Translations under genes and position numbers: made by a program
The notes under the pieces: generated by a model
Seen by the model: only the letters and a program-made list of their open reading frames with translations
The model's database searches: none
Told to the model about the DNA's origin: nothing
Source of the DNA: a virus
Lineage: Duplodnaviria; Heunggongvirae; Uroviricota; Caudoviricetes
Length of the DNA: 64,000 bases
Direction: 5' to 3' (one strand)
Virus record (IMG/VR): IMGVR_UViG_3300013126_000013
Shown here: positions 6,844-51,002 of the stretch, piece by piece
Numbering within the stretch: the first letter of the stretch is position 1
Layout of the letters: the number at the start of each line of letters is the position of its first letter

Positions 6844-7424
6844 TCCGGCACCTCACGATTTGTCCAAGCCATCTTGAAACGTTCTTGTTTGGTTTGGTAG
6901 AACTCACGGTACGAACGAACAGGATCATTCGGATACATGCATTCAGGGTTCGACTTCATGGCAAGAGGCTGTTGAGTGAGAGGACCAACCTCGATGTTAC
7001 GAGGAAGCTGCTTCAGCTTCTCACGAAGAAGAGTATCAGTCGCATGCACCTTGCCATAGCGATAAGTGTATTCGTCACACAGAGCAGCAAAGTGAACCCA
7101 GTGCCAAGTGTAGTTGTTGTTTGACACCATCGTCCAGACTGTACACGGGTGGCCGACATGTACCGCTTTGTACAGCACATCTTCGCGATCATCTGGAAGA
7201 GTCCAGTGCTTCGACATAGTCTTGCCAGATTTAGAAGGTGCTCGCTTGAGTTTACCGTCGAGCATGCGATGCGCAGTTGATAGCATCTGAGCTGACTCGA
7301 CGATCATTTTTACTACATGTGCATTACATTGTAGTTGTGCTGCTTCAACTGGATCTTTCGAAAGTACGAAGATATTCATCAAGTTCATCCCAAAGTTTAG
7401 GGTCGTTGACCCCGTGTTCTTCAT
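6825..7424 (-). CDS. hypothetical protein (start uncertain, may be M13/M16)
   Basis: 199-aa ORF overlapping 3' end of upstream gene. Confidence 0.4.
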   Translation of the reverse strand: MKNTGSTTLNFGMNLMNIFVLSKDPVEAAQLQCNAHVVKMIVESAQMLSTAHRMLDGKLKRAPSKSGKTMSKHWTLPDDREDVLYKAVHVGHPCTVWTMVSNNNYTWHWVHFAALCDEYTYRYGKVHATDTLLREKLKQLPRNIEVGPLTQQPLAMKSNPECMYPNDPVRSYREFYQTKQERFKMAWTNREVPEWFTVK

Positions 7425-8040
7425 CTATGAAGACTATATCATAGCCTTGTTCGATTGTACATACCATTTTTGATATATTTAGATCTAGGTTTTGCTTCCA
7501 CGTCCAGTCGCTCTTGATTTCAACGATCAGATCGAGTTCAACAATGTAGAAGTCAGGGTAGTAGTGCCTTGACGTTCCTTCATGGGTGTATTCTATTCTA
7601 GACGGAACTTCTAAGGTGTACCCGCATTGTTCAGCAAAATCAACAAAAAGTTTTTCATAAGCAGACCTACACACAAATCCCTTGTATCTTTCTGCAACGG
7701 AATGTTTAGTTAAATATCCGTTTGAAACACCATATCGTTCAACCATTGTATCACGGCGCTTATCTATTAAGCTTTGCGGTTGAGTTCGCCCAGTCCAATA
7801 TGAGGTCGGTGCTATGTGATTAGATCTACACTTAGGTGAGCAATACTCGCGGTATCCTTCACCGAGATTACGAAACTTTTTAGCGGCACCACATTTGCAT
7901 ATCTGGCTAACCTCTTTTATGTATATATCGTAGTATTCTTTCTTTGAAATATTATGATTTCTAATGTGTTTGGCCAACCCATTCACATTATTGAATTCCT
8001 TTTTGCAAATATTACAAATAGCCATGCTAATCTCCTTCAT
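7345..8040 (-). CDS. Zn-finger + PD-(D/E)xK nuclease-like protein (homing-endonuclease-like)
   Basis: N-term CNICKKEF..HIRNH C2H2-like; C-term YYPDFYIVELDLIVEIK (PD..ExK); paralog of 58455..59117. Confidence 0.5.
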   Translation of the reverse strand: MKEISMAICNICKKEFNNVNGLAKHIRNHNISKKEYYDIYIKEVSQICKCGAAKKFRNLGEGYREYCSPKCRSNHIAPTSYWTGRTQPQSLIDKRRDTMVERYGVSNGYLTKHSVAERYKGFVCRSAYEKLFVDFAEQCGYTLEVPSRIEYTHEGTSRHYYPDFYIVELDLIVEIKSDWTWKQNLDLNISKMVCTIEQGYDIVFIDEEHGVNDPKLWDELDEYLRTFERSS

Positions 8041-8397
8041 GACTATTTATACAATTATGTATTTACAATGTGTTTGTCGAGGATGAAGAGGTTCATATTA
8101 TTTCCAGTACGTTTGACCGACGCCGAGAAGGCCTAGCTGTACAGATTTAATATGATAGCAGACATATGTCAACCGTTTTTTGCATGTGCAAGAAAAACCC
8201 TCATCATGCATGACAACCTCGCAGCCACGAAATGGCCAAGCTGTGCCAACAAGATGAGAGCCTTGAGTTAAGATTTTGTTATGCTGAAAGTATGTCATGA
8301 TAAGGCATAGACCATCATAAAGACTAGCACACCAAAACTAGCACCTAAAAAGATGCTGGCGATGAGTCCCCAGATAATTGCGTTGAGCAGGTCATCA

Positions 8398-8602: not shown

Positions 8603-8757
8603 TTAGAGGTCAGCCATGGTCATGATACGGTCAAGACGAAGTTCGAGGTTCTTGACCTTCATATTTGCAACATCTTTCTCGACGATAGTCGAGGCTTTCA
8701 TCAGGTCTTCTTTGGCTTTGATGAGGAGGTCGGTGAGGATCGTGACGATGTCAGACA
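8603..8757 (-). CDS. small hypothetical protein (50 aa)
   Basis: sub-threshold ORF; stop overlaps AAGGAG RBS of next gene. Confidence 0.3.
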
Positions 8758-8774
8758 TGTTCTACTCCATTGCT

Positions 8775-8815
8775 TACTAGTTAGATATAGTACTTGGCAA
8801 CGGAAATGTCAACCG
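8775..8815 (-). promoter_or_regulatory. phage promoter (extended consensus copy)
   Basis: CTTACTAGTTAGATATAGTACTTGGCAACGGAAATGTCAACC; near-identical to copies at 37575 and 61110. Confidence 0.6.
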
Positions 8816-8904
8816 GTAAAATGCACTTTTTGCAAATTATTTTCTTGTTGACAACTTTGGCAGGTTGTGTATAATACCTTTAAGGTCTTCAGAATACTTT
8901 GATA

Positions 8905-9249
8905 TTAGATTCCATTAATCTGCTGATACTTCTTCCGTAGATCCATAAACTGTGGTAGCCAGTTCAGTGGCTGTTCTACAAAGATCTGTGGTTGTTCATC
9001 ATCAACCATAACGAGAGTAACAATCTGTTTGATTGGAATACCAGTCAGCTCGTAGAACGCTGCAGCATAGAATGACTCTTGCATGAAGTAACCATTCGTA
9101 TAAATAGTACTGATCGCGGAGGTACCAGCTCCCATCAGCTCTAGAAAACAAAAGGAATTCCCAGCATGGCTATTTATTACACATACCTTATAGGTTGGTC
9201 GAAACTCAATAGATGGTATTATGGCGTTAGATATGCTAAAGATGCTCAT
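8905..9249 (-). pseudogene. truncated duplicate of the 3' end of nuclease gene 9802..10554
   Basis: last ~58 aa (AAFYELTGIPIKQIVTLVMVDDEQPQIF..RKKYQQINGI) parallel C-terminus of the 250-aa gene; N-terminal part unrelated. Confidence 0.55.
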
Positions 9250-9816
9250 CCAAATGAACTGTGGATGAGATATTTTACATCTTCTAAGGTTGTTAAGAAG
9301 TTTGTAGAGATCAATGGTGAACCAGACGTAATTGAAATTCGTAAAACCTTTGATTCGCCATCTAAAGCTCGTTTATGGGAATCTAGAGTTCTCACTAGAA
9401 TGAGAGTTTCTAGTGATAACAGATTTCTTAATATAACTACTAATGCTGCTCCAGTATCTCCTTCAGAATTACCTAAGGAAGTAGAAGATCTTAGACGATC
9501 AAAAATATCATCTTCGCATAAGATCGGAAATATACAATATCGATCACAAAAAGAATCATACCCAGATTCTGCTAAGTCAATTATTTCCCAAAAGACTAAA
9601 GATAGATGGGCCAAAACCGACAAAACCATTCTATCTGAAAAGATGAAACAGGGGTGGAAGAACATGACCCAAGAATCTGAAGAAATGAGAAAAGAATCTT
9701 GGAAGAAAGCGTACCACGCTAAACCATTGTTAGAGTGTCCACATTGCGGCAAAACTGGCAAAAACCGAAGCGCAATGAGTAGATGGCATTTCACAAACTG
9801 TTCATATACCCTTTAA
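9166..9816 (+). mobile_element. GIY-YIG homing endonuclease gene (216 aa)
   Basis: IYYTYLIGW..YYGVRY GIY-YIG motif; plus-strand insertion among minus genes; C-terminal CPHCGKTG Zn-finger-like. Confidence 0.75.
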
Positions 9817-10554
9817 TTCGAAGTATTTTCTACGCAAAGATATAAACTTTGGAAGCCATTCATATGTGTTAACAGTGAACACTTGCGGCAAATCATCGTC
9901 GACCATTACAAGAATTACGCCTTGTTTAATTGGGATTCCGGTTCTTTCATAAAAAGCTGCGGCGTAAAATGCTGTTTGTAGAAAATATCCTTCAATCCAC
10001 TCAGCCTTCTTTGGCTTACGAGATGTCTTAAAGTCAATGATGGATAGTTGACCATCAAACTCTGCAATCAAGTCGACTCGACCAGCAGTCTTGATCTTCC
10101 TTGAATACAACGGTGCTTCCTGAAAGTAGATGTTATCGACTCGAGCATCGAGCACTGGCTTGAGTGTGTTGAAAGTCATTACATTGATCGGCATGCGACC
10201 TTTGCCATAGTCGACTTCATTGTTCAGATAATTTTCAGCAATGAGGTGGACATCAGATCCACGATTCGCAGCCTGAACACTGATGCGCTTTGCTTCCTCT
10301 TCACCAACACGAGCTTTCCATGCTTCGAGTCCAGACTTGTCCTGCACGCTGAGCACAGTTGTAACTGAAGGAAACTTCTCGCCGGTTGGAGGAAAATAGA
10401 AACGCCCGGTTGGAGTAGTATCACAACCGAGCTGATCGAGTACAATTCCATGATTGACATGGTTAAACATTGGATTGGTTCTTTCGATATTTGGAAACAA
10501 GGAACTCAAGCGTATCTGGAATATGCTTGAAGAATCGTAGTCCTTCTTTTCCAT
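9802..10554 (-). CDS. PD-(D/E)xK-type nuclease (250 aa)
   Basis: IIDFKTSRK motif; full-length copy of gene whose 3' end is duplicated at 8905..9084. Confidence 0.45.
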   Translation of the reverse strand: MEKKDYDSSSIFQIRLSSLFPNIERTNPMFNHVNHGIVLDQLGCDTTPTGRFYFPPTGEKFPSVTTVLSVQDKSGLEAWKARVGEEEAKRISVQAANRGSDVHLIAENYLNNEVDYGKGRMPINVMTFNTLKPVLDARVDNIYFQEAPLYSRKIKTAGRVDLIAEFDGQLSIIDFKTSRKPKKAEWIEGYFLQTAFYAAAFYERTGIPIKQGVILVMVDDDLPQVFTVNTYEWLPKFISLRRKYFELKGI

Positions 10555-19372: not shown

Positions 19373-20638
19373 TCAGGCAGACTTAACCGCCTGAACACGT
19401 GCCTTAAACATACCGTCCTTGATCTTTGTCGTGTTCTTCTCGTCGTTTGGAAATACATCTGCAAACTTAACAGCACGAACACTATCGAAAACCCACCGCA
19501 CTTTCATCAGGTGCTCAGTCGGAGCATCCTCAGAACCCAGTCGGCCATTCTCATCACAAACACCAACAGCCCACAGCAGCAGTACAACCTCAGGATCACG
19601 AAAAGCATCCATGTCCTCGAACATGTGAACCCAAGTCTTCGGGTTCAGAGTGTCCAGCTTGTGCATATGCATATGGAACCGAGTAGTCTTCATCACTCGA
19701 TCTCGCATCTTTGCGGGAACAGTCAGACGATTACAGAAGTCACGAGCAACTGCAACACCAGTCACCTCATGCCCGTAGTGCTTAGGCAGCTGATCACGTG
19801 GTGTCAGACCCTTACCGAAGTCATGTACCAGACATGCCAGTCGAGTCTCCAGGTCAAAGTTGCTCTCAGCAGCTTGAGTCAGAACCAGCATAGTGTGCTC
19901 GTACGCATCGCCCTCAGGGTGCCAACGCCGAGCCTCCAGTGCAGTCTTCAGTCGATAGACCTCAGGAAACAGAACATGCAGAGCGTCGCACTCCAGCAGA
20001 GTATCGAAAAACAGTCGTGCATGATCCTCCATCAGAGCTCGACTCAGCTCCTTCCAAACGCGCTCAGCAGTCAGCTCGTTCAGAACACCCTTCTTTGCCA
20101 TCTGAGAAACCAGAGCAGCAGTCTCAGGAGCAACTGTCCAGTCAGAACCGAAGCGAGCCCGAAAACGTGCCAGCCGCAGAACCCGAACCGGATCCTCGAC
20201 AAAAGCATCAGAAGTGTGCCGCAGTACTTTGTTCTTCATATCTTCTTGACCACTGAAAGGGTCGACTATATTCATAATGCGAGTCTCAGCATCGTCAAAG
20301 AACTCTATCGCCATCGCGTTAATCGTCAGATCGCGACGAGACAGATCCTCTTCGATCGTAACCTCGGGTCCAAACTCAACATCGAAACCGTGATAGCCTT
20401 TGCCAGACTTACGCTCTCGCCGTGCGAGAGCCCACTCGTCACCTTGATCGCTCAGATACACCGGAAACTCAGCGCCGACTTTGGTAAACGACTTGATGTA
20501 AAACGGAGGGTTCGCCATCAGCTCAGCCTCAGTTGCACCGGTGACAACCCAGTCAACATCCTGAGAGCGTACACCCATCAGATAATCACGAACGTATCCG
20601 CCGACTTTGTAAAATCTCATGTTGTTCACCTTGTTCAT
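19373..20638 (-). CDS. cca: tRNA nucleotidyltransferase (CCA-adding enzyme) with HD domain
   Basis: GGYVRDYLMG..DVDW head motif; HD motif HPEGDAYEHT; 421 aa. Confidence 0.8.
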   Translation of the reverse strand: MNKVNNMRFYKVGGYVRDYLMGVRSQDVDWVVTGATEAELMANPPFYIKSFTKVGAEFPVYLSDQGDEWALARRERKSGKGYHGFDVEFGPEVTIEEDLSRRDLTINAMAIEFFDDAETRIMNIVDPFSGQEDMKNKVLRHTSDAFVEDPVRVLRLARFRARFGSDWTVAPETAALVSQMAKKGVLNELTAERVWKELSRALMEDHARLFFDTLLECDALHVLFPEVYRLKTALEARRWHPEGDAYEHTMLVLTQAAESNFDLETRLACLVHDFGKGLTPRDQLPKHYGHEVTGVAVARDFCNRLTVPAKMRDRVMKTTRFHMHMHKLDTLNPKTWVHMFEDMDAFRDPEVVLLLWAVGVCDENGRLGSEDAPTEHLMKVRWVFDSVRAVKFADVFPNDEKNTTKIKDGMFKARVQAVKSA

Positions 20639-24331: not shown

Positions 24332-25082
24332 AAATATTCGACCAATGCTCAGGATTTACGACTCCTTCAGAGTCTTCATCGAGCTGTGGAAAGATATTAA
24401 GCCCCGTGAGTTCTTCTACTCGATTCACGGTGGTAAGATACTTAGGCATATCTTTGACTGGAAGTTCAGCGTTTGGCATAAGATATGCAATGGTCGAGTC
24501 TGTTGCCTTATCATATACGACCTTCCAGAGGTACGTAGGAACACCTACTTTACCATCACCAATGGTCTTATAACCTTCTTCGTAGATCGTGCCAGATACT
24601 ACATAGAGGTCACGATTCTCAAGCGCCCAGTTGCGCACCTTGAGTTCAAGCATCCGCCAGATACCACGATTGTTATTTGGAACTTGCGGTACCATGTTTG
24701 AGAGGAAGAAGCTCTCACTCATAACTTCTTGGCTAGCTTTATTATTCGCGCCTGCTGACAAGTGTCCACGATCATATGGCTCACCTGAGTAATCTTCAAG
24801 GCTTGCTGAGTGTTCTTTTGGAATTTGATAATCTGGCCGAAAATCGTCCCTGCGTTTAGCAACACCTGTAATATCTAAATTATCAAGATGTTCAACTACA
24901 TACTCAGCGGTCTTTGTGTCATAGCGGTAATGAATTGCGTAGTTAGTATGGCATACATACTGAGTGTTTTCAGTAATAGCCGAAATAGGAGCGCCGAAAA
25001 TCACGTGCTGAGAACAGTTCTCATCAATAGGATTTGCGAAAGTAACAGATGGTATAAGAGCAAGAAGATAAAGTAAGCGCAT
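24324..25082 (-). CDS. secreted DNA/RNA non-specific endonuclease (NucA/Serratia nuclease family)
   Basis: signal peptide; GYDRGHL active-site motif; NNNRG. Confidence 0.75.
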   Translation of the reverse strand: MRLLYLLALIPSVTFANPIDENCSQHVIFGAPISAITENTQYVCHTNYAIHYRYDTKTAEYVVEHLDNLDITGVAKRRDDFRPDYQIPKEHSASLEDYSGEPYDRGHLSAGANNKASQEVMSESFFLSNMVPQVPNNNRGIWRMLELKVRNWALENRDLYVVSGTIYEEGYKTIGDGKVGVPTYLWKVVYDKATDSTIAYLMPNAELPVKDMPKYLTTVNRVEELTGLNIFPQLDEDSEGVVNPEHWSNIYD

Positions 25083-25110
25083 GGATCCTCCATAATATTG
25101 TGCTTACTAT

Positions 25111-25440
25111 TTATTCCTCGCTCTTATAGAACAGATAGCTAGGATGCGTGCGGTTTTTCCACGCTTTATACTGTGAATCCATAAAATTCACTTTAGCCAC
25201 AATATAGCCATCGACGCATTCTTCTTTGTACCAGTCTCGAATGCGTCGATATTCGTCTGCAACTTGGTCAGCAGCCTCTTCAAGCGTGTTATCAACATGC
25301 CGACAGTCTCCGAGCACTCTGCAAAAATGCTGTTCAACAGTGATCTCGTCGTCTGGCCAGAAGGCAATATCCCAGCCTTTACCATTACACATTATGCTTC
25401 CTGCCCGAAAGGTAAGATTGCATTTCAAGAGTAAGTTCAC
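25111..25440 (-). CDS. hypothetical protein (109 aa)
   Basis: ORF. Confidence 0.4.
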   Translation of the reverse strand: MNLLLKCNLTFRAGSIMCNGKGWDIAFWPDDEITVEQHFCRVLGDCRHVDNTLEEAADQVADEYRRIRDWYKEECVDGYIVAKVNFMDSQYKAWKNRTHPSYLFYKSEE

Positions 25441-25576
25441 GAATTCTAGGTTTTACCGAAACATCGTTATCACGAATGAGCTTTTTCATAAGATTAGCTC
25501 GCTCTCTTCGCATATCTCCGATTTTTGATCCAACCCAGAGACCATTTACTACCTCATAGTTCTTTTCGTCGATCAT
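25385..25576 (-). CDS. hypothetical protein (63 aa)
   Basis: ORF. Confidence 0.3.
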   Translation of the reverse strand: MIDEKNYEVVNGLWVGSKIGDMRRERANLMKKLIRDNDVSVKPRIRELTLEMQSYLSGRKHNV

Positions 25577-25827
25577 GCAACCACCTTATCAAGAATTTTA
25601 CTCAAGTTCTCAAGTACCCACTCTTTTGCAACAATGAGTTGTGCAGCATCACCTTGTACTTCGGCATCTTTAAACTTTGCTGCAGTCAACACAATGTTAT
25701 AGTCGGTTGGTAGGCCCGCATCAACTTCGTATACAAAGAAGTCTGATTCTTTTGGCCTACAATATCTATATAGATAAGTGAAGGCCATAAAGTCTTCGAG
25801 GATATCAGTTATCACGCTTTCATCCAT
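25573..25827 (-). CDS. hypothetical protein (84 aa)
   Basis: ORF. Confidence 0.4.
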   Translation of the reverse strand: MDESVITDILEDFMAFTYLYRYCRPKESDFFVYEVDAGLPTDYNIVLTAAKFKDAEVQGDAAQLIVAKEWVLENLSKILDKVVA

Positions 25828-26312
25828 TCCATTAGAGCTTCATACTTCGGCGTCGAGCCGATGTTCTTCTTGCAGTGATCGAGGAGCAGGTCCCGAAGAA
25901 CACAACCGTCGATCAGCCGGAAGATGAAGCCGCCGTCGGCCTTGTTGATCAGGTTTGGCACCATCTCAAGCGCGATGCGCTTCTTGTCAGCACCATAAAT
26001 CGTCCGTGCCAGCAACTCTAGACCTTCCAGTCGACCTTCAGCATTGCGGAAAGCTTCCCAGAAAGCTGCTTCGACTGCATCAACACGAGCTAAGTCCGAC
26101 GGATCGAGCATAGCCCGAGTGTCGTCGATCGTTTCGTTCAGAACGAGCTCAACGATGTTACGATCAACTCGGACGATGTCCTTGGTCTTGTGGATCTGCA
26201 CATACTCATCGGCTTTGACCTTGAGCATGTGCCCGTCTGCAAACCGAATGATGATACCCTCTTCACCGCGAAGAGCCTTTACTTTTTCAAGAAGAGCTTC
26301 AATTTTCGTCAT
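25812..26312 (-). CDS. rnlA: RNA ligase (Rnl1-type), C-terminal segment (motifs IV-V)
   Basis: EGIIIRFADGHMLKVKADEYV = motif IV (EG..) + motif V (KxK); own RBS/promoter. Confidence 0.65.
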   Translation of the reverse strand: MTKIEALLEKVKALRGEEGIIIRFADGHMLKVKADEYVQIHKTKDIVRVDRNIVELVLNETIDDTRAMLDPSDLARVDAVEAAFWEAFRNAEGRLEGLELLARTIYGADKKRIALEMVPNLINKADGGFIFRLIDGCVLRDLLLDHCKKNIGSTPKYEALMEWMKA

Positions 26313-26339
26313 CGTTGTCTCTTTTCACATGGTCTCGAT

Positions 26340-26378
26340 ATAAATAGACTATACTGATCGTTGGAGGATGTCAACATG
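26340..26378 (-). promoter_or_regulatory. phage promoter serving the RNA-ligase C-terminal ORF
   Basis: revcomp GTTGACATCCTCCAACGATCAGTATAGTC; overlaps RBS/start of plus-strand HEG. Confidence 0.55.
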
Positions 26379-27089
26379 TTTTTGCTGTACAAGACAACAA
26401 ATTTGCTGAATGGTAAAGTGTACGTTGGTATTCATGAGTGTGGCGATACATGTCGACATCTTGTAGATTCTAAGTGTACGTACTTTGGGTCTGGCTCAGC
26501 CATTGGGCGGGCGCTGAAGAAGTACGGAAAGGAAAACTTTATACGAGAAACTTTAGCGGAATTTTCTACAGAGGCACAAGTTCTCGCAGAAGAAGCACGT
26601 ATCGTCGACAAAGCTTGGGTGAAGTCTTCTAATAACTACAACATGGCACTCGGAGGAGGTAAGCCGCCAAACCAATCTGGCTTTAAGATGTCACAGAAAG
26701 CTAAAGAGAAGATCAGTGAAGCATCTAAGCAAAGATCACAAAGTTTGTCATATACAGCCAAGAAGACTATGGATGCTAGGGTTTCAACGGGTGGTTGGAC
26801 TTCAGAAGAAATATCTAAAAGAGTCCAGACAAGAAGAACAACTGTTGGGTACTCGAGCGACATGACTGCATGTAACACCCAAGAATCTATAGCTAAACGT
26901 GTAGCTACTAAGAAGGCAAATGGTTACAAACAAGATGTATCTTACTTGCACTCAGAAGATGTTACTTTCCGCAAAACAAGAACCAGGATCATCAACCAGA
27001 TGAAGAAAGGCAAGACCTTCAATGAAGAGGTCTTGCTTAAGTACAACATTACTTCAGAAGATACTCAAGGTATTCTTCTACCGAGTTGA
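26376..27089 (+). mobile_element. GIY-YIG homing endonuclease gene inserted inside the RNA ligase gene
   Basis: MFLLYKTTNLLNGKVYVGIH GIY-YIG; GGAGG RBS; probable ATG 26376 (track gives 26361 TTG). Confidence 0.75.
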
Positions 27090-27705
27090 ATGTACGAACC
27101 AACTCAAAAGGTGCATCCCACTGACGCAAGCTACGGTACTCACCAGACACAGTCTCACGTATTGCAGTCAGGATCAACTTGGCTTCGGTATATTCGACAA
27201 CAATCTTGTTGGTCGGAGCAACATACTCGAAGATCGGTGTGAAGCCATCAATCATCATGTCCTCGAGCCAGTCATACTGGCCAGGATCAAGAAGCTTCTC
27301 GGCTTCCATCGCGATGTCGGTCACACCCATCTTCGTAGCAAGACGAACCATGCCGTGCATACGAACCGGGCGAATCATCGAACCGTCGAGCTTGTCCATC
27401 ACAATGTGAGCACGAGTCAAGTCCAGTCGATGCGACTGGGTTTCTTCTTTCTCGTTTATGTTGAAGAACTTGTGGAACGGACGAGACATGATGTTGCCTT
27501 CAGTGTCGAAGATCAGGCCGCGGCATTCACGACGAATGGCACCCATCACATCGTCAGGACCTTCCATCTTGAAAGTATCAGGCATAGCGACGAGATAGTT
27601 GATCACCGTACCAAACTCACGTTCAGCAACAACGAACTCATCACGACTAGCGATTGCCGGAAGAACGTCATTGATCGTACGAATTTCAGGGAACTGGTAG
27701 TGCAT
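27049..27705 (-). CDS. rnlA: RNA ligase (Rnl1-type), N-terminal segment (motifs I-IIIa)
   Basis: KLDGSM motif I at residue ~105 (T4 Rnl1 K99), FEYV motif III; ORF stops inside HEG region. Confidence 0.7.
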   Translation of the reverse strand: MHYQFPEIRTINDVLPAIASRDEFVVAEREFGTVINYLVAMPDTFKMEGPDDVMGAIRRECRGLIFDTEGNIMSRPFHKFFNINEKEETQSHRLDLTRAHIVMDKLDGSMIRPVRMHGMVRLATKMGVTDIAMEAEKLLDPGQYDWLEDMMIDGFTPIFEYVAPTNKIVVEYTEAKLILTAIRETVSGEYRSLRQWDAPFELVRTFNSVEEYLEYLLK

Positions 27706-27721
27706 AATGTACCTCTCTGTT

Positions 27722-27761
27722 ACTCGATAGATATAAGTAATCTACTCGGGAATGTCAACCA
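27722..27761 (-). promoter_or_regulatory. phage promoter (extended consensus copy)
   Basis: TTACTCGATAGATATAAGTAATCTACTCGGGAATGTCAACC. Confidence 0.6.
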
Positions 27762-27774
27762 GCAAAATGCAGAT

Positions 27775-27897
27775 TTATGCGTTATCTGCGTACCAGACGA
27801 TGAACTTCCACGAAGCAGCTTCGATCGCCTTGCCGAGGGCATAGAGCCCGCCGAACATGATGACGTTGGGGAGGACGTAGTAGATGATGGTTTCCAT
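27775..27897 (-). CDS. small hydrophobic protein (40 aa)
   Basis: sub-threshold ORF METIIYYVLPNVIMFGGLYALGKAIEAASWKFIVWYADNA; ATG overlaps upstream stop. Confidence 0.3.
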   Translation of the reverse strand: METIIYYVLPNVIMFGGLYALGKAIEAASWKFIVWYADNA

Positions 27898-27898
27898 A

Positions 27899-28066
27899 TC
27901 ACACCTGATAATCTTGGGGTTCAGAGTTTTTCATACGTTCGAGAAGAGGCTTGAGTTCAGCTCGACGAACTGCGTATTGCGCGATGCCGAGCTGATTACC
28001 TTCCGAGTCGAGCCACAGCGCAGTCCAGAGACGAAGGCTACGATCGTACCAGTGTTCGATTTTCAT
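27899..28066 (-). CDS. small hypothetical protein (55 aa)
   Basis: sub-threshold ORF with AGGAA RBS directly after promoter. Confidence 0.3.
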   Translation of the reverse strand: MKIEHWYDRSLRLWTALWLDSEGNQLGIAQYAVRRAELKPLLERMKNSEPQDYQV

Positions 28067-28082
28067 GCCGGATTCCTTCTCT

Positions 28083-28123
28083 TACTCGATAGATATAAGC
28101 AATCCGGCATGAAATGTCAACCA
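28083..28123 (-). promoter_or_regulatory. phage promoter (extended consensus copy)
   Basis: CTTACTCGATAGATATAAGCAATCCGGCATGAAATGTCAACC. Confidence 0.6.
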
Positions 28124-28187
28124 GCTAAACCAACAAAAATGATGCCCGCGGCTAAAATAATCACAAGAAGCGTAAAGGCATCCATGA

Positions 28188-29312
28188 TCAGTCTTCCCTC
28201 TTACCTTTGCCCCAGTCGATCACAACCGGGAACCGCGGAACACCATCCGGTGTCGGAGTGAAGTAACGCAGAGTGACCCAATCAGGCTTCTCTTGCTTTT
28301 TCCACATCACGGCGAGGGTATCCATATCACCACGAACACCAGCTTGGAAGGTCTTCTCAGAGTTGAGACGAAGAACGAAGTGCTTCACGCAACCCTGCCA
28401 GTTGCCTTGACCTTCGAGAACCTCGACGACTTCAAACTCGTCAGTCAAGAACTCCTTACGCTTGAGCAGGTTCTTCGTACGTTTGTTCTCGTACGGCTTG
28501 TCGATACGAACCATTTGGCCTTCGTATCCATGCTCAAGGTAGCCTTCATACAGAGAGTCAAGCCCCGTGCGAGTGGGCACGTGCACCGTGGGTACGATCC
28601 GCACGTACTCGAGAGGAGCTTCATAGCGAAGCAGCTCACGTTTGCTGAAAGGAAGATCGGGTTGATCGAGAACGATCACATCGTACACATGGTACTGAAC
28701 AAGTTCTTTCGACTTCACAAGATCTTCTGCTTTCGGCTTGGTCTTGCGGACCATAGAGGTGATCGAGTTGAAGTCATCTTTGAGCTCATGATTGTAGAGC
28801 TCACCGTCAAGGATCATGTTCGGATGCTTCTCAAAGAAAGGTTGTAGGGACTCCCAGATATGAGGCACCGCAACGATCTCTTTGCCGGACCGAGTCCACA
28901 ACCCATCTTTGCGAGCGATGCACCGGATGCCATCGAGCTTCGGCTGAGCATACACATTACCAGCGGCGAAGTTCACTTCAACATCTTCGAACTTCTCAGC
29001 CAGCATGGGCTTGAACTTGTCGAAGGTGTCAACGTTTTTCAAGTCAGAGAAGTATCCACGGTCTTTCTTCTTCTGCACTTCAGACTGCATCTCAGACGTT
29101 GCTTGCTCTTCCAAAGAAGTCTCATTCGAGCGACCGACGTTCTTTTGCTCGACGAAGGTCCATTCGGAAGTCACTTTCTTCCCGTCTTCGAGACCAGCGA
29201 TCGAACGAAGACCCCAGCGAGTCCCGTCAGTGCCAGTCTCAGCGTACCACACTCGAACCTTCCCTTTGGAATCGAGCTTGTAGAGGGTTTCACTAGTGAG
29301 TACAGTTTTCAT
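28188..29312 (-). CDS. ATP-dependent DNA ligase
   Basis: KLDGIR motif I, EGQMVR motif IV, LLKRK motif V; 374 aa. Confidence 0.8.
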   Translation of the reverse strand: MKTVLTSETLYKLDSKGKVRVWYAETGTDGTRWGLRSIAGLEDGKKVTSEWTFVEQKNVGRSNETSLEEQATSEMQSEVQKKKDRGYFSDLKNVDTFDKFKPMLAEKFEDVEVNFAAGNVYAQPKLDGIRCIARKDGLWTRSGKEIVAVPHIWESLQPFFEKHPNMILDGELYNHELKDDFNSITSMVRKTKPKAEDLVKSKELVQYHVYDVIVLDQPDLPFSKRELLRYEAPLEYVRIVPTVHVPTRTGLDSLYEGYLEHGYEGQMVRIDKPYENKRTKNLLKRKEFLTDEFEVVEVLEGQGNWQGCVKHFVLRLNSEKTFQAGVRGDMDTLAVMWKKQEKPDWVTLRYFTPTPDGVPRFPVVIDWGKGKRED

Positions 29313-37288: not shown

Positions 37289-37560
37289 TATTCATCTTCC
37301 ACTTCATCCTTGAAGACTTCGGTGAAGACCGCTTCGCCGTACTCACCAGTTGTGTACAGACCCAGTTCCCAGAACCGAGCCATAAGTTTCGCATCAGCTT
37401 CGTTCTTGATATACATCGTATTCACGAGTTCACCGTTCGGAAGACCCGAGACACTCGAGAAGAAGTCAACGACGTAGATCGTCTTGATGATAGAGCCGTC
37501 GAAGTCGCCGTAGCAAACATCGACATCAACTTCTTCAGGGGTCACGATCGCGATAGCCAT
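37282..37560 (-). CDS. hypothetical protein (92 aa)
   Basis: ORF. Confidence 0.4.
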   Translation of the reverse strand: MAIAIVTPEEVDVDVCYGDFDGSIIKTIYVVDFFSSVSGLPNGELVNTMYIKNEADAKLMARFWELGLYTTGEYGEAVFTEVFKDEVEDEYV

Positions 37561-37574
37561 GTTGTTCTCCGTTG

Positions 37575-37617
37575 CTTACTAGTTAGATATAAGCAACGGA
37601 GAAGCAAATGTCAACCT
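37575..37617 (-). promoter_or_regulatory. phage promoter (extended consensus copy)
   Basis: GTTGCTTACTAGTTAGATATAAGCAACGGAGAAGCAAATGTCAACC. Confidence 0.6.
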
Positions 37618-38303
37618 TTTTCTTGAGTTTCTTGCACTTTTTTTCGCGAAGATTTCTTTAGGCTTGTCATAACTACAGGTTCAGCTTCTTCGATATCGTT
37701 AGCTTCCTGCGCAGCTTTTTCTGCTTCCATCTTTGCTTTCTTTGCTTCAAGACGCTTGATTACTTCGTCGCCATCCATCCAAAGATCTTTGTTGTTCAAC
37801 ATAAGCCTGATTTCTTCTTCAGTCAAGAAGTCTTCATAGATGTCACGCAGAAGCTTCTCTGACCAAACACGCTCATGCTGCAATTGGTCAAGCATCTCGC
37901 CTCCTTTACCCATAACACCACCAGAATAGTTATGGAACATAAACATCGAGTGTTCAGATACTTCAAACTGATCAGCACAAAGGAAGATCATAGTTGCAGC
38001 AGACATACAAGCACCTTCAACTGATACTATCACGGTCGCATCGGTTTCAGAGAGTACTCGCATGAATTGAATCGCAGTGAACAGATCACCGCCATATGAG
38101 TTAATGAACAGACGAATTACGTCTGTTGCGCCCGAATGTCGAATCGTATCAAACCACTCAATATATTCATCGGCTGATTCGATGTTACCGCAAAGATAAA
38201 ATTCGTGGATATTAACAACAGCTCTCGATGTATAACGATCCTGCTGTTTGTTCTTTTGCTGGAACAAATCCATGATGTCGATCTGTTTCATTTTCTTTTG
38301 CAT
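37611..38303 (-). CDS. ClpP-family (S14) serine peptidase-like protein
   Basis: INSYGGDLFTA..GACMSAATMIFL resembles ClpP core; acidic coiled-coil C-terminus. Confidence 0.5.
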   Translation of the reverse strand: MQKKMKQIDIMDLFQQKNKQQDRYTSRAVVNIHEFYLCGNIESADEYIEWFDTIRHSGATDVIRLFINSYGGDLFTAIQFMRVLSETDATVIVSVEGACMSAATMIFLCADQFEVSEHSMFMFHNYSGGVMGKGGEMLDQLQHERVWSEKLLRDIYEDFLTEEEIRLMLNNKDLWMDGDEVIKRLEAKKAKMEAEKAAQEANDIEEAEPVVMTSLKKSSRKKVQETQEKG

Positions 38304-40150: not shown

Positions 40151-40164
40151 TTCGCATATCCGTT

Positions 40165-40208
40165 GCTTACCAGTTAGATATAAGTCATAGTCTCTCGAAT
40201 GTCAACCG
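40165..40208 (-). promoter_or_regulatory. phage promoter (extended consensus copy)
   Basis: GTTGCTTACCAGTTAGATATAAGTCATAGTCTCTCGAATGTCAACC. Confidence 0.6.
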
Positions 40209-40263
40209 GTAAAATGAAAAAAGTGCCCCGAAGGACACTTTTTCTTACATGGGTACTTTAAGA

Positions 40264-46949: not shown

Positions 46950-47023
46950 TGGTGCTGAAGGAGAGAATCGAACTCTCATCGATGGGATACGAAGCCATTG
47001 TAATACCACTATACTACGTCAGC
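46950..47023 (-). tRNA. tRNA (probable Thr, anticodon CGU; one acceptor mismatch)
   Basis: T-arm GAGAGTTCGATTCTCTC, acceptor GCTGACG/CTTCAGC+A+CCA encoded. Confidence 0.45.
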
Positions 47024-47029
47024 ATGAAT

Positions 47030-47105
47030 TGGTGCTGCAAGAGGGAATCGAACCCCCGACCTGATGCTTACAAGGCAACTGCTCTACCGACTGAGCTACT
47101 ACAGC
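47030..47105 (-). tRNA. tRNA-Thr(UGU)
   Basis: cloverleaf: GCTGTAG..GCTCAGTCGGTAGAGC..loop CTTGTAA..GGGGGTTCGATTCCCTC..TTGCAGCACCA. Confidence 0.65.
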
Positions 47106-47112
47106 GTTATTT

Positions 47113-47185
47113 TGGAGCGGGTAGCCAGAATCGAACTGGTCTCCTACAGCTTGGAAGGCTGCCTGGCTACCATAGCCTTACCCGC
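47113..47185 (-). tRNA. tRNA-Gly(UCC)
   Basis: acceptor GCGGGTA/TACCCGC, anticodon loop CTTCCAA, T-loop TTCGATT, CCA encoded. Confidence 0.6.
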
Positions 47186-47263
47186 GTTATTCTTATTTAT
47201 ACTTCTCGCTCCGACCAGTCCATTTAGAGTTTGGACAAACTTGGGGCTAAAAAGCCACTCCAC

Positions 47264-47287
47264 CACCTGCTTTTACGAAAGCAGGAA
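47264..47287. other. perfect 8-bp hairpin (CCTGCTTT-TACG-AAAGCAGG)
   Basis: between HEG and tRNA-Gly; possible processing/termination structure. Confidence 0.3.
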
Positions 47288-47357
47288 AATTCGTCAGGAT
47301 CGTTTTGTCCGCTAAGACATCGAATATTATTTAGCGTTTTTGTTTGCTGAACCGATC

Positions 47358-47993
47358 CTATCTCTTACGACTTTTATACCATCCTTCTGGTATAATGTCA
47401 ACATCTTTTTTGATCTTCTTGTTCTCTTTACCGTCCGTTATCCACATCGTGCCGAACTGAGAATTTGAAGAACCAACATTCTTTGACTTACGCAACTTTT
47501 GTATCGTATCTTCTGAATGCTTCTTTCCTGTAAAGCCTCTACTGTTTTTGCCACCTAGAGAAGAATGAATTTTTCTTTTAGTTACAAAGTCATCATCTGT
47601 TTCCATAAGTCTTTTTATAACTCGTGCAGCTGCAGCAGATGCCTTTTTAGAAAAATTTGGATCTAACCTTCTTTGTTCATCTAAAGATACAGACTTTCCA
47701 CTCATGTTCAGATAACCAAATCCACCATTACCTCCTGGGCAAAGGTTGTAAGTGTCTTCTCTTAAGCAGAACTCTTCTGTTACCAACAGAGCTTCTTTAG
47801 CATTCATATCAGCTTCATTATCAAACTGGAAGAGAATTTCTTTCGTAAAGTTCTCGATTCCATGTTTGTTTTGAGCAGATTTTAGATGTTTACCAGAACC
47901 CATGTAACCATCATTCAAGTCTTTGGTCTGATGTTTTCCAATATAGATCTCGCCATTGATTAGGTTAGTGATCTTGTAGATTGTGTAGAACAT
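47358..47993 (-). mobile_element. GIY-YIG homing endonuclease gene (segB-like position in tRNA cluster)
   Basis: MFYTIYKITNLINGEIYIGKH GIY-YIG. Confidence 0.7.
47365..47404 (-). promoter_or_regulatory. phage promoter inside 3' end of HEG, driving tRNAs
   Basis: revcomp GTTGACATTATACCAGAAGGATGGTATAAA. Confidence 0.5.
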
Positions 47994-48048
47994 TGTTTGT
48001 ACTCATAGTTTTATGCCTTCGCTACTATTTATACAAACAATGTTCTCT

Positions 48049-48125
48049 GTGTCCGGATGGTGGGACTCGAACTCACGACCTACGGTACCCAAAACCGTCG
48101 CGCTACCAGACTGCGCTACACCCGG
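48049..48125 (-). tRNA. tRNA-Pro(UGG)
   Basis: CCGGGTG TA GCGC..loop TTTGGGT..TTCGAGT..CATCCGG A. Confidence 0.6.
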
Positions 48126-48243
48126 ATTATTCTTTGACGTACTCTCCCGTCTGAGTCACCTGGTGCCATCAGGTCAGAGTCAGTATAATCACCCAAACTA
48201 GTAATAGTCTTGCAGGGTTTTGGCGTATCTGACTACGCATATT

Positions 48244-48318
48244 TGGCAGGGGCCGTGGGAATTGAACCCACTTCTCAAGGTTTTGGAGACCTGCGGATTA
48301 CCACTTTCCTTGACCCCT
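48244..48318 (-). tRNA. tRNA-Trp(CCA)
   Basis: acceptor AGGGGTC/GGCCCCT, loop CTCCAAA, T-arm GTGGGTTCAATTCCCAC, CCA encoded. Confidence 0.55.
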
Positions 48319-48326
48319 ATAATCTT

Positions 48327-48402
48327 TGGCTCCCTGAGTAGGGCTTGAACCTACGACCCGCTGATTAACAGTCAGCTGCTCTACCAACTGAGCTATCAGG
48401 AA
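48327..48402 (-). tRNA. tRNA-Asn(GUU)
   Basis: GCTCAGTTGGTAGAGC D-arm, loop CTGTTAA, GTAGGTTCAAGCCCTAC. Confidence 0.65.
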
Positions 48403-48403
48403 T

Positions 48404-48800
48404 AAACTATTTGTCCATTGTACACCCGCAACGGACTAACGACTTGATAGGGTGACCCTCAGACTGAGTAGTTGAACTTCTGACATCTTTTAATGTTCAA
48501 CTTCTACGTGCCAACTCGTCTTCTCATGGTGTCGTCTTAACTTTATTCTCTGTTTTCAACGATACACCACCAAAGCGCTTGAAGCCCGAAGAGGTGGCAA
48601 CAGCTACTATGTCTACCCGCTTACATCTTTCGAATGGTGCACGTAGTGTATCTATGAAAACAGAGTACTCGTTATAACACTATTTATATTCGGGTCTTAC
48701 GGGTTTGTCCCTGCCCGATAATCAACTGGAACTTCTACCTTCATGATCTCGGATCGTCGTGGTTTTCTTGTTCCTTACTATTACAATCTATACTATTCTA
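48404..48800 (-). ncRNA. ~400-nt non-coding transcribed spacer (candidate small stable RNA(s))
   Basis: no ORF, no tRNA; lies between promoter at 48807 and tRNAs; near-repeats GTTGAACTTCT/GTTCAACTTCT. Confidence 0.3.
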
Positions 48801-48815
48801 CAGGAATGTCAACTA
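48775..48815 (-). promoter_or_regulatory. phage promoter (TTGACAT family) driving ncRNA/tRNA block
   Basis: CAATCTATACTATTCTACAGGAATGTCAACTAC. Confidence 0.6.
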
Positions 48816-49036
48816 CTATTTTTAGTTTTTCGCACTTTTTTCTTTTGATCTTGCATGAGGTGTAAATGCTTTTGATACAAGTGTTCTTCTTCTTGTTCTT
48901 CGCGAGTCTCGCGAATCGCTTTAATTGTTTTGATCAATTTACGATGCGCTCGAGCGACGAGTGATCGTTGGAATCGATCTTTACGAGAAGGTTTTTCGAA
49001 ATGGATTTCTACGTCTTCAGTAGTTACTTCAGTCAT
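48809..49036 (-). CDS. hypothetical Lys/Arg-rich protein (75 aa)
   Basis: GAGGTGAT RBS. Confidence 0.4.
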   Translation of the reverse strand: MTEVTTEDVEIHFEKPSRKDRFQRSLVARAHRKLIKTIKAIRETREEQEEEHLYQKHLHLMQDQKKKVRKTKNSS

Positions 49037-49059
49037 AACATCACCTCATTGTTGTTATA

Positions 49060-49147
49060 TGGCGGATGGAGGAGGAATCGAACCCCATAGGTTTCCCTAT
49101 GAACCGCTTTCCAGGCGGCCTCCCGCGCCAGCTAGGAGACTCCATCC
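49060..49147 (-). tRNA. tRNA-Ser(GGA), type II
   Basis: GGATGGA acceptor, loop CTGGAAA, long variable arm CATAGGGAAACCTATG, CCA encoded. Confidence 0.6.
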
Positions 49148-49171
49148 ATACTTTGAGGTTTGCTATATTTA

Positions 49172-49259
49172 TGGCAGAAGGTAGAAGCATCGAACTTCTG
49201 ACGAATTAACGTCACCCGGGCTTTCGAGACCCGTTGAGGAGCCAACCTCGGTACCTTCC
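49172..49259 (-). tRNA. tRNA-Ser(CGA), type II
   Basis: GGAAGGT/ACCTTCT acceptor, loop CTCGAAA, long variable arm, CCA encoded. Confidence 0.55.
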
Positions 49260-49263
49260 ATAT

Positions 49264-49353
49264 TGGCGGATACGGCAGGATTTGAACCTGCGGACCCCTT
49301 TCGGGATCGACGGTTTAGCAAACCGCTGGTTTAAGCCACTCACCCACGTATCC
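49264..49353 (-). tRNA. tRNA-Ser(GCU), type II
   Basis: GGATACG/CGTATCC acceptor, loop TTGCTAA, variable arm GATCCCGAAAGGGGTC, T-arm GCAGGTTCAAATCCTGC. Confidence 0.6.
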
Positions 49354-49357
49354 AATA

Positions 49358-49732
49358 TTATCCAGCAGATCGAGTAATGAAGTTCAATCTGATCTTTTCT
49401 GGGCTAAAGTACTTAGCGATAAGTTCTTCTGCAATCTTTACGTCAACAGTCTTGCACGAGAAGATGTCAATATATGCATCACCATTTGAGTCAACAAGAT
49501 GCCCAGAGATATTGCTTGTCTCGATCATCTGAATAAAGCTGATACCAGCCTTGTCAGGTGCATGTGTAGCAAAATGCTCGATCATTGGTTCGCCATATGC
49601 AATCATATCGATCGCTGGCACCAACTCTTTAATGAAGTTGTAAACGTTTTCTTTGCTTGTAATTTTGTCAATGTCACATGCGGCGCAGTCGAACATTGCG
49701 TGATAGCCCCAATAAGCCATAGTATCCTCCAT
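49358..49732 (-). CDS. speD: S-adenosylmethionine decarboxylase-like (SpeD class 1b, pyruvoyl-dependent) protein
   Basis: GYHAMFDCAACD and GISFIQMIETSNISGHL..IDIFSC parallel SpeH (HLVAEFYECD..VVVISESHLTIHTWPE..IDLFTCG). Confidence 0.5.
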   Translation of the reverse strand: MEDTMAYWGYHAMFDCAACDIDKITSKENVYNFIKELVPAIDMIAYGEPMIEHFATHAPDKAGISFIQMIETSNISGHLVDSNGDAYIDIFSCKTVDVKIAEELIAKYFSPEKIRLNFITRSAG

Positions 49733-49738
49733 TATTGT

Positions 49739-49815
49739 TGGTGCCCTTGGTGAGACTCGAACTCACACTTTCCGGAGTTTGAAGCCGGTGACTCTACCAA
49801 TTGGCCTACAAGGGC
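49739..49815 (-). tRNA. tRNA, type-I body with anticodon CAA (Leu codon UUG) - atypical
   Basis: acceptor GCCCTTG/CAAGGGC A CCA; D-arm GGCCAATTGGTAGAGTC; stem CCGGC/TCCGG, loop TTCAAAC; no long variable arm. Confidence 0.45.
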
Positions 49816-49816
49816 G

Positions 49817-50092
49817 TTATCTACGATTGTCTTTCAGTTGCTCGAGAACTCGTTTCGCCTTTTCACGAAACGCTGCATCAGTAACGGTATCAGAGTCAAC
49901 GTCATTGCGAAGAGTGTACTTGATGCCTTCGTACCGATACAGCGCTTCTTCCATCGCCGAAGCATGAAACTGAATCCGCTCAACTGTTGCTTTGAGCATC
50001 GAGAAATCGTACGTTTCTAACATCTTTCGAATAGTATCAAGTTCGGAACAAATGTAACGGTTCACATCAATTGTGTACGGTACTTTCGACAT
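49817..50092 (-). CDS. hypothetical protein (91 aa; start moved downstream of tRNA)
   Basis: GAGGATGAG RBS before MSKVPY. Confidence 0.4.
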   Translation of the reverse strand: MSKVPYTIDVNRYICSELDTIRKMLETYDFSMLKATVERIQFHASAMEEALYRYEGIKYTLRNDVDSDTVTDAAFREKAKRVLEQLKDNRR

Positions 50093-50117
50093 CTCATCCT
50101 CATTTTGATTTTGAATT

Positions 50118-50193
50118 GGTGCGGATAGAGGGACTCGAACCCCCAACATGCGCGTTCTAAGCGCGCCGACTCTACCAATTGGCCTATATCCGC
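50118..50193 (-). tRNA. tRNA, type-I body with anticodon UAG (Leu codon CUA) - atypical
   Basis: acceptor GCGGATA/TATCCGC A CCA; same D-arm as 49739..49815; perfect stem GCGCG/CGCGC, loop CTTAGAA. Confidence 0.5.
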
Positions 50194-50298
50194 GATATCT
50201 GGTCGGTTTTAAGTTATCCGAAAACTATCAACCCATACTATGCCCAAGCAGCTTGGAAGCCGGCTATCTATTCTCTGGTTGTCCGAACATTCGATCTT

Positions 50299-50538: not shown

Positions 50539-50552
50539 TGCATCTCCAATTT

Positions 50553-50626: not shown

Positions 50627-50629
50627 AAT

Positions 50630-50910: not shown

Positions 50911-50921
50911 ATTATACTTTC

Positions 50922-50996: not shown

Positions 50997-51002
50997 GTTA
51001 TT

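Follow-up and report, generated by a model that had tools for sequence, protein, structure and literature searches.

Few enzymes are known to survive the splitting of their genes by homing endonuclease genes (HEGs) in the absence of splicing, namely NrdA of Aeromonas phage Aeh1, the T4 topoisomerase and the DNA polymerase of Aeromonas phage 25. In the Aeh1 arrangement nrdA-a/mobE/nrdA-b, a free-standing HEG lies within a conserved enzyme gene that is intact in relatives, and no splicing takes place (Friedrich et al. 2007, cited in PMC2988022). What is more, assembly of the split NrdA requires the tails which this insertion created (Crona et al. 2011, PMC3045599). Here, we describe a comparable situation in a 64,000-nucleotide stretch of DNA from a virus of the Caudoviricetes (IMG/VR record IMGVR_UViG_3300013126_000013), which in its entirety we call the window. 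Namely, rnlA, the gene for RNA ligase 1 (Rnl1), is present there as two collinear pieces, rnlA-N and rnlA-C, with a free-standing HEG of the GIY-YIG (Seg-like) kind between them on the opposite strand, and with neither an intron nor an intein. We consider it probable that an antisense HEG has split rnlA into two selected, separately expressed and mobile half-genes, whose products would assemble into a ligase.

Among the described systems, nrdA/mobE of Aeh1 is the closest precedent. The two cases are alike in that the HEG sits inside an enzyme gene, in the novel C- and N-terminal tails that flank the break, and in the late promoter motif TATAAATA upstream of the HEG. They differ in the host gene, which is rnlA and not nrdA, and in the HEG, which is of the GIY-YIG and not the HNH type. 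Moreover, the HEG of the window runs antisense to its host gene, whereas mobE is co-oriented and overlaps nrdA-b, and the distal half in the window has an early promoter of its own, interleaved with the signals of the HEG. T4 genes 39/60 with mobA, as well as genes 43A/43B of Aeromonas phage 25 with a seg-like gene (PMC2988022), resemble it in being split at an HEG and in having products that reassemble into a working enzyme, as those of the window would. However, these are other enzymes, their HEGs are co-oriented, and no dedicated outward promoter for the distal half is described for them (PMC2988022).

The same half-HEG-half layout is known from the so-called fractured genes, namely phage-like metagenomic loci in which split inteins go together with a free-standing HEG lying between the two parts of the gene (Dassa et al. 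2009, PMC2677866). The HEGs of these loci carry TATAAATA and hairpins in their 5' untranslated regions (5' UTRs), and it was predicted that transcription signals for the downstream half may arrive with the invading element (PMC2677866). In contrast to the fractured genes, the window has no intein, and its halves stay separate. As for orientation, T4 segD is likewise a free-standing GIY-YIG HEG that runs opposite to its neighbours, but it is intergenic, lying between genes 23 and 24, no segD-specific promoter has been identified, and it is the only antisense HEG in T4 (PMC2988022). The searchable literature yielded no report of a split rnlA, and what sets the present locus apart from its precedents is the host enzyme, the antisense orientation, the interleaving of early and late promoters and the breadth of natural variants. 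That said, no new principle is involved, as both the review (PMC2988022) and the study of fractured genes (PMC2677866) anticipated that invading HEGs may bring, or need, promoters for their neighbours.

The locus is nevertheless informative in several respects. To the short list above it adds RNA ligase 1, a covalent nucleotidyltransferase, the active site of which would form across two chains, and it may serve as a natural design for split ligases. The comparative series is unusually complete: it spans intact alleles, several backgrounds that carry the same split, and two further points of interruption, namely a second split site and one with a split intein. Finally, the expression of the orphaned distal half would have been rescued via a dedicated promoter gained by differing routes in different lineages, and this makes testable how an invading endonuclease gene becomes phenotypically neutral at the level of transcription, which had earlier been raised only as a possibility.

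The two halves of the ligase and the endonuclease gene between them

The upstream half, rnlA-N (27049-27705, minus strand; 218 aa), comprises the N-terminal part of the Rnl1 nucleotidyltransferase domain and ends in the helix SVEEYLEYLLK. The downstream half, rnlA-C (25812-26312, minus strand; 166 aa), starts 736 nt away with the head helix MTKIEALLEKVKAL, followed by motif IV, motif V and the Rnl1-specific C-terminal helical domain. A first-pass annotation of this DNA had taken the two open reading frames (ORFs), 27705-27049 and 26312-25812, for consecutive parts of one Rnl1, with motifs I and III on the first, motifs IV and V on the second and a combined length near that of T4 Rnl1, and each element of this proposal is borne out. 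In particular, rnlA-N matches Pfam RNA_lig_T4_1 (E 6.9e-21, profile positions 1-156 of 227) and covers positions 47-204 of PHROG 562 ('RNA ligase and tail fiber protein attachment catalyst'), of which rnlA-C matches positions 215-371 (of 377; E 1e-19); the match of rnlA-C to Pfam T4_Rnl1_C (E 2e-4) lies below the curated cut-off. When joined end to end, the halves align to T4 Rnl1 (2c5u) in one HMMER stretch, residues 59-303 against 52-297, and to the uninterrupted Rnl1 genes of cultured phages in a single tblastn piece, the nearest cultured Rnl1 proteins being about 40% identical and coming from phages of alphaproteobacteria and cyanobacteria. The uninterrupted proteins of relatives are 374 aa long, and the joined halves exceed this by 10 residues.

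The catalytic residues are distributed over the two ORFs as follows. Motif I is K105 in KLDGS on rnlA-N, aligned to T4 K99 in an invariant column of alignment A1, and motif III is E160 in FEYV, on the same half, aligned to T4 E159. On rnlA-C, motif IV is E17-G18 in EGIII, aligned to T4 E227/G228, and motif V consists of K30 and K32 in KVKAD, aligned to T4 K240/K242. The catalytic columns of motifs III, IV and V are invariant in the 23 aligned sequences.

Where the break falls within the fold can be seen in an AlphaFold2 (AF2) model of the joined halves, computed with alignment A1 and its 22 intact homologues. Its predicted local distance difference test (pLDDT) value is 77, and its top PDB matches are the T4 Rnl1 structures 5tt6, 2c5u and 9do4 (E ~1e-17, with a template-modelling score of only 0.48). 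A single-sequence AF2 prediction of the joined halves, with a pLDDT of 40, was of no use and was replaced by this model. Around the break, the model has a helix at 209-216 in the N tail (SVEEYLEY), a low-confidence hinge at 217-219, a helix at 222-231 in the C head (IEALLEKVKA) and then the motif IV strand at 237-241; intact relatives have a single helix at this position. The break thus lies inside the nucleotidyltransferase domain, a few residues before motif IV. The tails themselves, SVEEYLEYLLK before the stop codon of the N half and MTKIEALLEK... at the start of the C half, amount to about 10 aa each. Since no direct repeat (target-site duplication) flanking the insert was found at the DNA level, a target duplication is unsupported, the N tail and the C head sharing a weak resemblance at the protein level.

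The gene between the halves (26376-27089, plus strand; 237 aa from its ATG) is complete, as the first-pass annotation had noted, along with its overlap of some 40 nt with the upstream half. It matches PHROG 314, 'homing endonuclease', with an E-value of 4e-30, and, below the curated cut-off, Pfam SegE_GIY-YIG with an E-value of 5e-4. Over the ~90 residues at its N-terminus, it aligns to the catalytic domain of I-TevI (1mk0; 4-91 against 5-92) with a weak PDB E-value of 0.83, and in its pattern LLY...VYVG...CRH...EEA...NYN the GIY, YIG, Arg, Glu and Asn positions are in register with I-TevI. The gene converges with rnlA-N, the 3' ends overlapping over 41 nt (27049-27089). The TAA stop codon of rnlA-N is the complement of the HEG end ...AACATTA, so that it is the insert which supplies the stop codon of the upstream half. 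On the other side, the HEG start and the rnlA-C start are separated by a gap of 63 nt (26313-26375), which holds interleaved, divergent late and early promoters and a weak ribosome-binding site (RBS) for rnlA-C, AAGAGA.

The two halves are separate ORFs, each with a stop or a start codon of its own, and Rnl1 is not encoded here as a single polypeptide. An Rfam cmscan of 25000-28500 on both strands at E<=10 returned no intron or ribozyme, but chance snoRNA and miRNA hits alone, and the tails in the window contain no intein blocks (no Cys/Ser+1, no HN). Because there is no intron, no intein block and no frameshift that restores one ORF, and because the gap measures 736 nt, the product must, to judge from these features, be two polypeptides, with an active site that would span the chains, motifs I and III being on one and motifs IV and V on the other.

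Intact, split and mobile alleles, and selection on the halves

Relatives with an uninterrupted rnlA were found. The 195-kb IMG/VR sequence L001 is syntenic with the window and carries an uninterrupted rnlA encoding 374 aa, with the same DNA ligase gene upstream and the same small ORF downstream. More generally, the joined halves match more than 90 protein clusters of 373-380 aa, the best being P0028, to which they are 92% identical and from which the window differs only around the break (N ~201-218, C 1-36) and by the 10-residue surplus. The uninterrupted gene is thus what most relatives have, and the split is the derived allele, in the minority.

The split itself recurs in at least 6 independent assemblies and, in addition, in a distant lineage. 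Six clusters of C halves (P0001-P0006) are exactly 166 aa long and share the start M(T/A)KI(E/D).LLEKV. In L022, L031, L032, L033 and L034, an N half of 218-224 aa is followed by an antisense HEG of 237-238 aa that overlaps the N-half end, and by a C half of 166 aa. This architecture is found at the same position in the distant lineage (L023-L026) too, with 55% identity to the window in the N half and 43% in the C half. As the same layout is present in these independent assemblies (L022, L031-L034 and L023-L026), the split architecture is no assembly artefact. Two further candidates were rejected, namely L027 as an HEG-less split, since the scaffold has a run of N between its two ORFs, and L033 as a shortened HEG, since its sequence is identical to that of L032 and the gene call alone differs.

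Over most of its length, the rnlA of the window resembles that of the intact L001 (87-93% identity) more than that of the split L022, as a four-way alignment of the DNA shows. In the ~100 nt on either side of the HEG, however, the identity of the window to L001 is 52-73% and that to L022 82-88%, and in the motif IV segment even L023 rises to 78% identity with the window. The DNA that travels with the HEG can be delimited on both sides. On the N side, it is the tract 27052-27105 (minus strand), or rnlA-N codons 201-218, which is diverged from intact alleles and conserved among split ones; on the C side, it is the tract 26205-26312 (minus strand), or the first 36 codons of rnlA-C, with ~10 surplus residues that are absent from intact Rnl1. 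In L032, a different rnlA background (P0096 type, with a 6-residue insertion) is joined to the same 14-codon tail, TFNSVEEYLEYLLK, the N-side tract being there the last 14 codons only. Such mosaic flanks are what one expects of homing with co-conversion of flanks, as described for the seg and mob genes of T4 (PMC2988022). Comparison of the sequences thus finds the HEG present or absent at one and the same site, together with co-converted flanks, as befits a mobile element, and the spreading unit would appear to be the endonuclease gene plus two modified gene ends. We propose that homing with co-conversion carries the HEG, plus ~50-110 nt on either side, into uninterrupted rnlA alleles, which would be why this unit is found in different rnlA backgrounds. 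In this process, the endonuclease would cleave intact alleles.

If the position of the break in the window is called site A, a second intein-less split, at site B, lies ~20 codons upstream of it in L028 (1849-3869), L029 (1517-3460) and L030. At site B, L029 and L030 have a GIY-YIG homologue of the window HEG, and L028 has an HNH-like ORF that is unrelated to it. Homologous GIY-YIG genes, at 44-62% identity, are found at site A. At both sites, protein similarity among the homologues stops at ...KYNI, the final 8-13 residues being unconserved read-through into rnlA. Among relatives of the HEG in IMG/VR, there are matches to the N-terminal domain only, at 48% identity or less, and none provides an informative insertion context. 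Finally, L012 (5965-8634) and L013 carry a split intein at motif I of rnlA (KMDG/C...HN/S, with slashes at the junctions). In L012, the junctions are ...EKMDG/CLDED..., then a stop codon, and ...NNILVHN/SMIRP..., and a 338-aa antisense DUF7487 ORF lies between the intein halves. The rnlA of L012 and L013 is therefore of the fractured-gene type, RNA ligase being absent from the eight host enzyme types listed in PMC2677866.

Are the halves merely present, or are they maintained? The ratio of non-synonymous to synonymous substitution rates (dN/dS) was computed between the window and L022, and it came to 0.07 in rnlA-N, 0.11 in rnlA-C and 0.18 in the HEG, at a dS of ~1-1.8. Because such whole-half values could partly predate the split, the test was narrowed to 54 codons confined to split alleles, namely 18 at the end of N and 36 at the beginning of C, with the novel tails included, for which five alleles gave dN/dS of 0.02-0.12; between the window and L034, these codons differ by 10 synonymous changes and 1 non-synonymous change. 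What is more, the start codon, the stop position and all catalytic residues are retained among split alleles. The low dN/dS in codons existing only in split alleles is a strong argument that the two pieces are translated and that, split as they are, selection acts on them. The reading of the locus as a gene for two polypeptides, which the first-pass annotation had preferred to an intron, consequently has comparative support from the intact orthologues, the recurring split and the purifying selection on split-only codons, and neither an Rfam intron nor a restored single ORF speaks for the intron model.

The control region between the endonuclease gene and rnlA-C

In the short gap before rnlA-C, signals for the two strands are interleaved. 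On the plus strand, the T4-type late promoter motif TATAAATA (26339-26346) lies 30 nt upstream of the HEG start codon, and the HEG RBS, GGAGGA (26363-26368), lies 7 nt before the ATG and within the spacer of the early promoter of the opposite strand. This early-type promoter (26348-26375, minus strand) faces rnlA-C and consists of GTTGACAT at 26368-26375, including the -35 hexamer TTGACA at 26369-26374, and of the -10 hexamer TATAGT at 26348-26353. Its spacer between TTGACA and TATAGT is 15 nt (GTTGACAT-N14-TATAGT), a spacing found in 7 of the 33 sites of the family. Namely, GTTGACAT occurs in 33 copies in the window, all on the minus strand and each followed by a TATA-type -10, against 2.7 expected from shuffles, and TATAAATA occurs in 22 copies against 1.8 expected. 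The upstream half has an early sigma70-type promoter of its own at 27730-27759 (minus strand; GTTGACAT at 27752-27759, TTGACA, a 17-nt spacer and TATATC), which is kept upstream of the intact rnlA in L001. Six sites, at 8753-8842, 27716-27767, 28078-28129, 37555-37644, 40163-40214 and 61088-61177, form a sub-family of early promoters with extended similarity over 52-90 nt (promoter, leader and TAGTAAG..RBS region), and these include the sites upstream of rnlA-N and of the neighbouring small ORF.

The signals are conserved among split alleles. The motif TATAAATA precedes the HEG in L022, L023, L028, L029, L032 and L034, and it is kept in five of the six site-A alleles. In the six site-A split alleles, both early hexamers are invariant, whereas 6-7 of the 13 spacer positions that follow an invariant GTTGACATC vary. 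Elsewhere, the distal half is served differently. In L023, the counterpart -35 and -10 hexamers are degenerate, and a TTGACA-17-TATAGT combination is found ~30 nt upstream, inside the first HEG codons. In L029, the 117 nt before the N half recur, as a direct repeat with 87% identity, immediately ahead of the C half, and the repeat contains a hairpin of the HEG type, TATAAATA, an early promoter and an RBS. Judging from these motifs, the distal half appears to be preceded by a promoter in three of the four split types, the route differing from one to the next. That the split lineages gained promoters by different routes suggests selection for independent rnlA-C transcription rather than a fixed, endonuclease-borne promoter, and the C-half promoter looks acquired or captured under such selection.

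The first-pass annotation had recognised the copy of the family promoter that faces rnlA-C and overlaps the RBS and start of the HEG, and its hexamers are those given above; the late promoter of the HEG itself, interleaved with it, was absent from that account. Its further suggestion, that the HEG supplies the promoter of the distal half, stands in part: the promoter of the window does lie within the inserted DNA and is conserved, but other split alleles (L023, L029) have theirs at other positions or by other routes. A plausible reason for a separate rnlA-C promoter would be polarity over ~740 nt of untranslated antisense RNA. While both the use of the rnlA-C promoter and the timing of expression are here inferred from motifs, the antisense layout with interleaved early and late promoters suggests a built-in temporal separation of host-gene and HEG expression.

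Weighing the proposed mechanism against its alternatives

Taken together, the course of events that we favour is the following. A free-standing GIY-YIG HEG would have invaded the rnlA coding sequence in antisense orientation, in the helix just before motif IV, and would be expressed late from its own TATAAATA promoter. In this process, rnlA-N, with motifs I and III, would have gained a stop codon from the end of the insert, and rnlA-C, with motifs IV and V and the C-terminal domain, would begin at a new start codon, with ~10 residues more at its N-terminus. Synthesised separately, the two polypeptides would assemble non-covalently into an active ligase, in which a version of the helix, kept on each piece at the break, may aid docking; by analogy, the tails can be hypothesised to be the docking elements. 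Finally, rnlA-C would be independent of ~740 nt of read-through, having its own early sigma70-type promoter, interleaved with the late promoter, the RBS and the start codon of the HEG.

Several points weigh against this picture. The formation of a heterodimer, and of an active ligase from two halves, is inferred, with indirect support from the purifying selection on split-only codons, and the suggested partial duplication of the break helix draws on weak protein similarity alone. If homing was recent, a part of the low whole-half dN/dS could predate the split, a worry which the test on the tracts eases while spanning just 54 codons, and dS is near saturation for several pairs of alleles. As for transcription, a generic sigma70 scan of 25500-28200 called no promoter, having missed the site because its 15-nt spacing falls outside the 16-18 nt rule of the scan. 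The -35 hexamer sits between the RBS and the ATG of the HEG, and its conservation could partly reflect HEG translation signals. The RBS of rnlA-C is weak. Finally, L028, the site-B split with the unrelated HNH-like ORF, shows no obvious promoter before its C half, for which reason a dedicated C-half promoter would seem not to be universal among splits.

Some of these points would also fit a situation in which both halves are functional, but rnlA-C is translated from read-through of the early rnlA-N transcript, GTTGACAT...TATAGT being incidental, or else serving mainly to make antisense RNA or to occlude the HEG start early on. Not only does the -35 hexamer overlap the translation signals of the HEG and the C half of L028 lack an obvious promoter, but the minus strand has no terminator-like site between the rnlA-N stop and rnlA-C. 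Yet the site is a full member of a strand-specific family of 33 copies, its hexamers are invariant where the spacer is variable, a promoter has been placed before the C half by different means in independent lineages, and ~740 nt of untranslated RNA would be prone to polarity. We therefore regard translation from read-through as unlikely. It is a good deal less probable still that the locus represents tolerated damage, with Rnl1 dispensable, the ORFs decaying remnants and the endonuclease gene alone being maintained. T4 rnlA is non-essential under laboratory conditions, HEG insertions are able to inactivate genes, and a second RNA ligase, of the PF09414 type, is present nearby in relatives. 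Against such decay, both ORFs are intact in at least 7 independent assemblies, including lineages with dS >1, dN/dS is 0.07-0.11 overall and 0.02-0.12 in the split-only codons, all catalytic residues are kept, and the start, stop and promoter are conserved.

Could the halves instead be kept for separate functions, such as tRNA binding by the C-terminal domain or tail-fibre attachment alone, with no ligase reconstituted? The annotation of PHROG 562 does include tail fiber protein attachment, T4 gp63 is bifunctional, and the C-terminal domain of T4 Rnl1 is an independent fold. That said, the break falls inside the nucleotidyltransferase domain, and the residues of motifs I/III and IV/V are conserved on separate halves, which would be expected only if a composite active site were in use, so that we consider this very improbable. 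Least credible of all, and in our view hardly worth entertaining, is the restoration of a single mRNA or polypeptide by a group I/II intron with an antisense ORF, by a split intein or by translational bypass. A split intein does exist at another rnlA site in L012 and L013, and some introns harbour antisense ORFs. However, the Rfam search described above (E<=10, both strands of 25000-28500) gave no intron or ribozyme, the ~10-residue tails have no intein blocks, the insert holds a promoter in addition to a stop codon and a new start codon, the surplus of 10 aa in the joined halves speaks against a clean junction, and 736 nt far exceed any known bypass.

Beyond the favoured mechanism, in which two separately expressed halves reassemble, one can think of a broader reading, which we put forward tentatively and with somewhat less than even expectation. 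Namely, rnlA may be a recurrent target in freshwater T4-like phages, broken at least 3 separate times (at site A, at site B and at the motif I split intein), with an antisense HEG in every case, and the viable intein-less splits may share an HEG-supplied stop codon, short helical tails for docking on both pieces and a compact bidirectional control region, with a late promoter for the HEG and, for the distal half, an early promoter, captured or evolved, plus an RBS. If this were true, HEG cassettes that lie antisense and carry outward promoters would amount to a general and portable means of splitting genes, and homing would spread the split allele as a unit and not the HEG alone.

By its gene content, the window resembles the early region of a large T4-like phage. 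Genes near the locus include those for a DNA ligase, NAD salvage, a tRNA nucleotidyltransferase (19373-20638) and ribonucleotide reductase. There are 33 tRNA genes on the minus strand at 46950-57821, among which ARAGORN reports one with a four-base anticodon (gaac) at 52051-52125. With this tRNA cluster and the tRNA nucleotidyltransferase in the window, Rnl1 would seem to be in a tRNA-maintenance context. At the DNA level, megablast against cultured phages gave nothing and blastn gave short matches only, at 77% identity or less; as there were no long matches, the phage has no close cultured relative. An nrdA-like ORF at 62120-63769, considered as a second split gene, gave no evidence for a split.

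The window contains four HEG-like ORFs in all: a DUF7487/Vsr-like one at 7345-8040 (minus strand), the two GIY-YIG ones and an HNH one at 57836-58429 (plus strand), beside a tRNA-Leu gene. Three of them run against the early genes around them, in contrast to the situation in T4. All four have TATAAATA directly upstream (regions 7345-8051, 9099-9816, 26339-27089 and 57730-58429), which fits late or middle expression, as in T4 HEGs (PMC2988022). A terminator-like hairpin on the plus strand at 27419-27443 was considered as the terminator of the rnlA HEG and rejected, as it is not conserved in other split alleles.

The second antisense GIY-YIG ORF, at 9166-9816 (plus strand), is SegE-like, 46% identical to L029:619-1365, and overlaps the 3' end of a PD-(D/E)XK nuclease gene (9802-10554, minus strand). 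Downstream, the ORF at 8905-9249 (minus strand) contains a diverged duplicate, ~60 aa long, of the C-terminus of this nuclease gene (FYAAAFYE.TGIPIKQ...LR.KY...GI, then a stop codon). It seems, from this arrangement, that the cassette brought a replacement 3' end, the old end being left as a remnant. Finally, a conserved 5'-UTR module, composed of TATAAATA, a hairpin, CTCTAGAAA..AAGGA and CCAGCATG, precedes unrelated HEG ORFs (SegE-like, GIY-YIG and HNH-like) in different phages, with copies at 9100-9168 in the window, at 3181-3270 in L028, and at 1366-1460 and 2766-2850 in L029. It resembles the RBS-sequestering hairpins described for mobE and for the HEGs of fractured genes.

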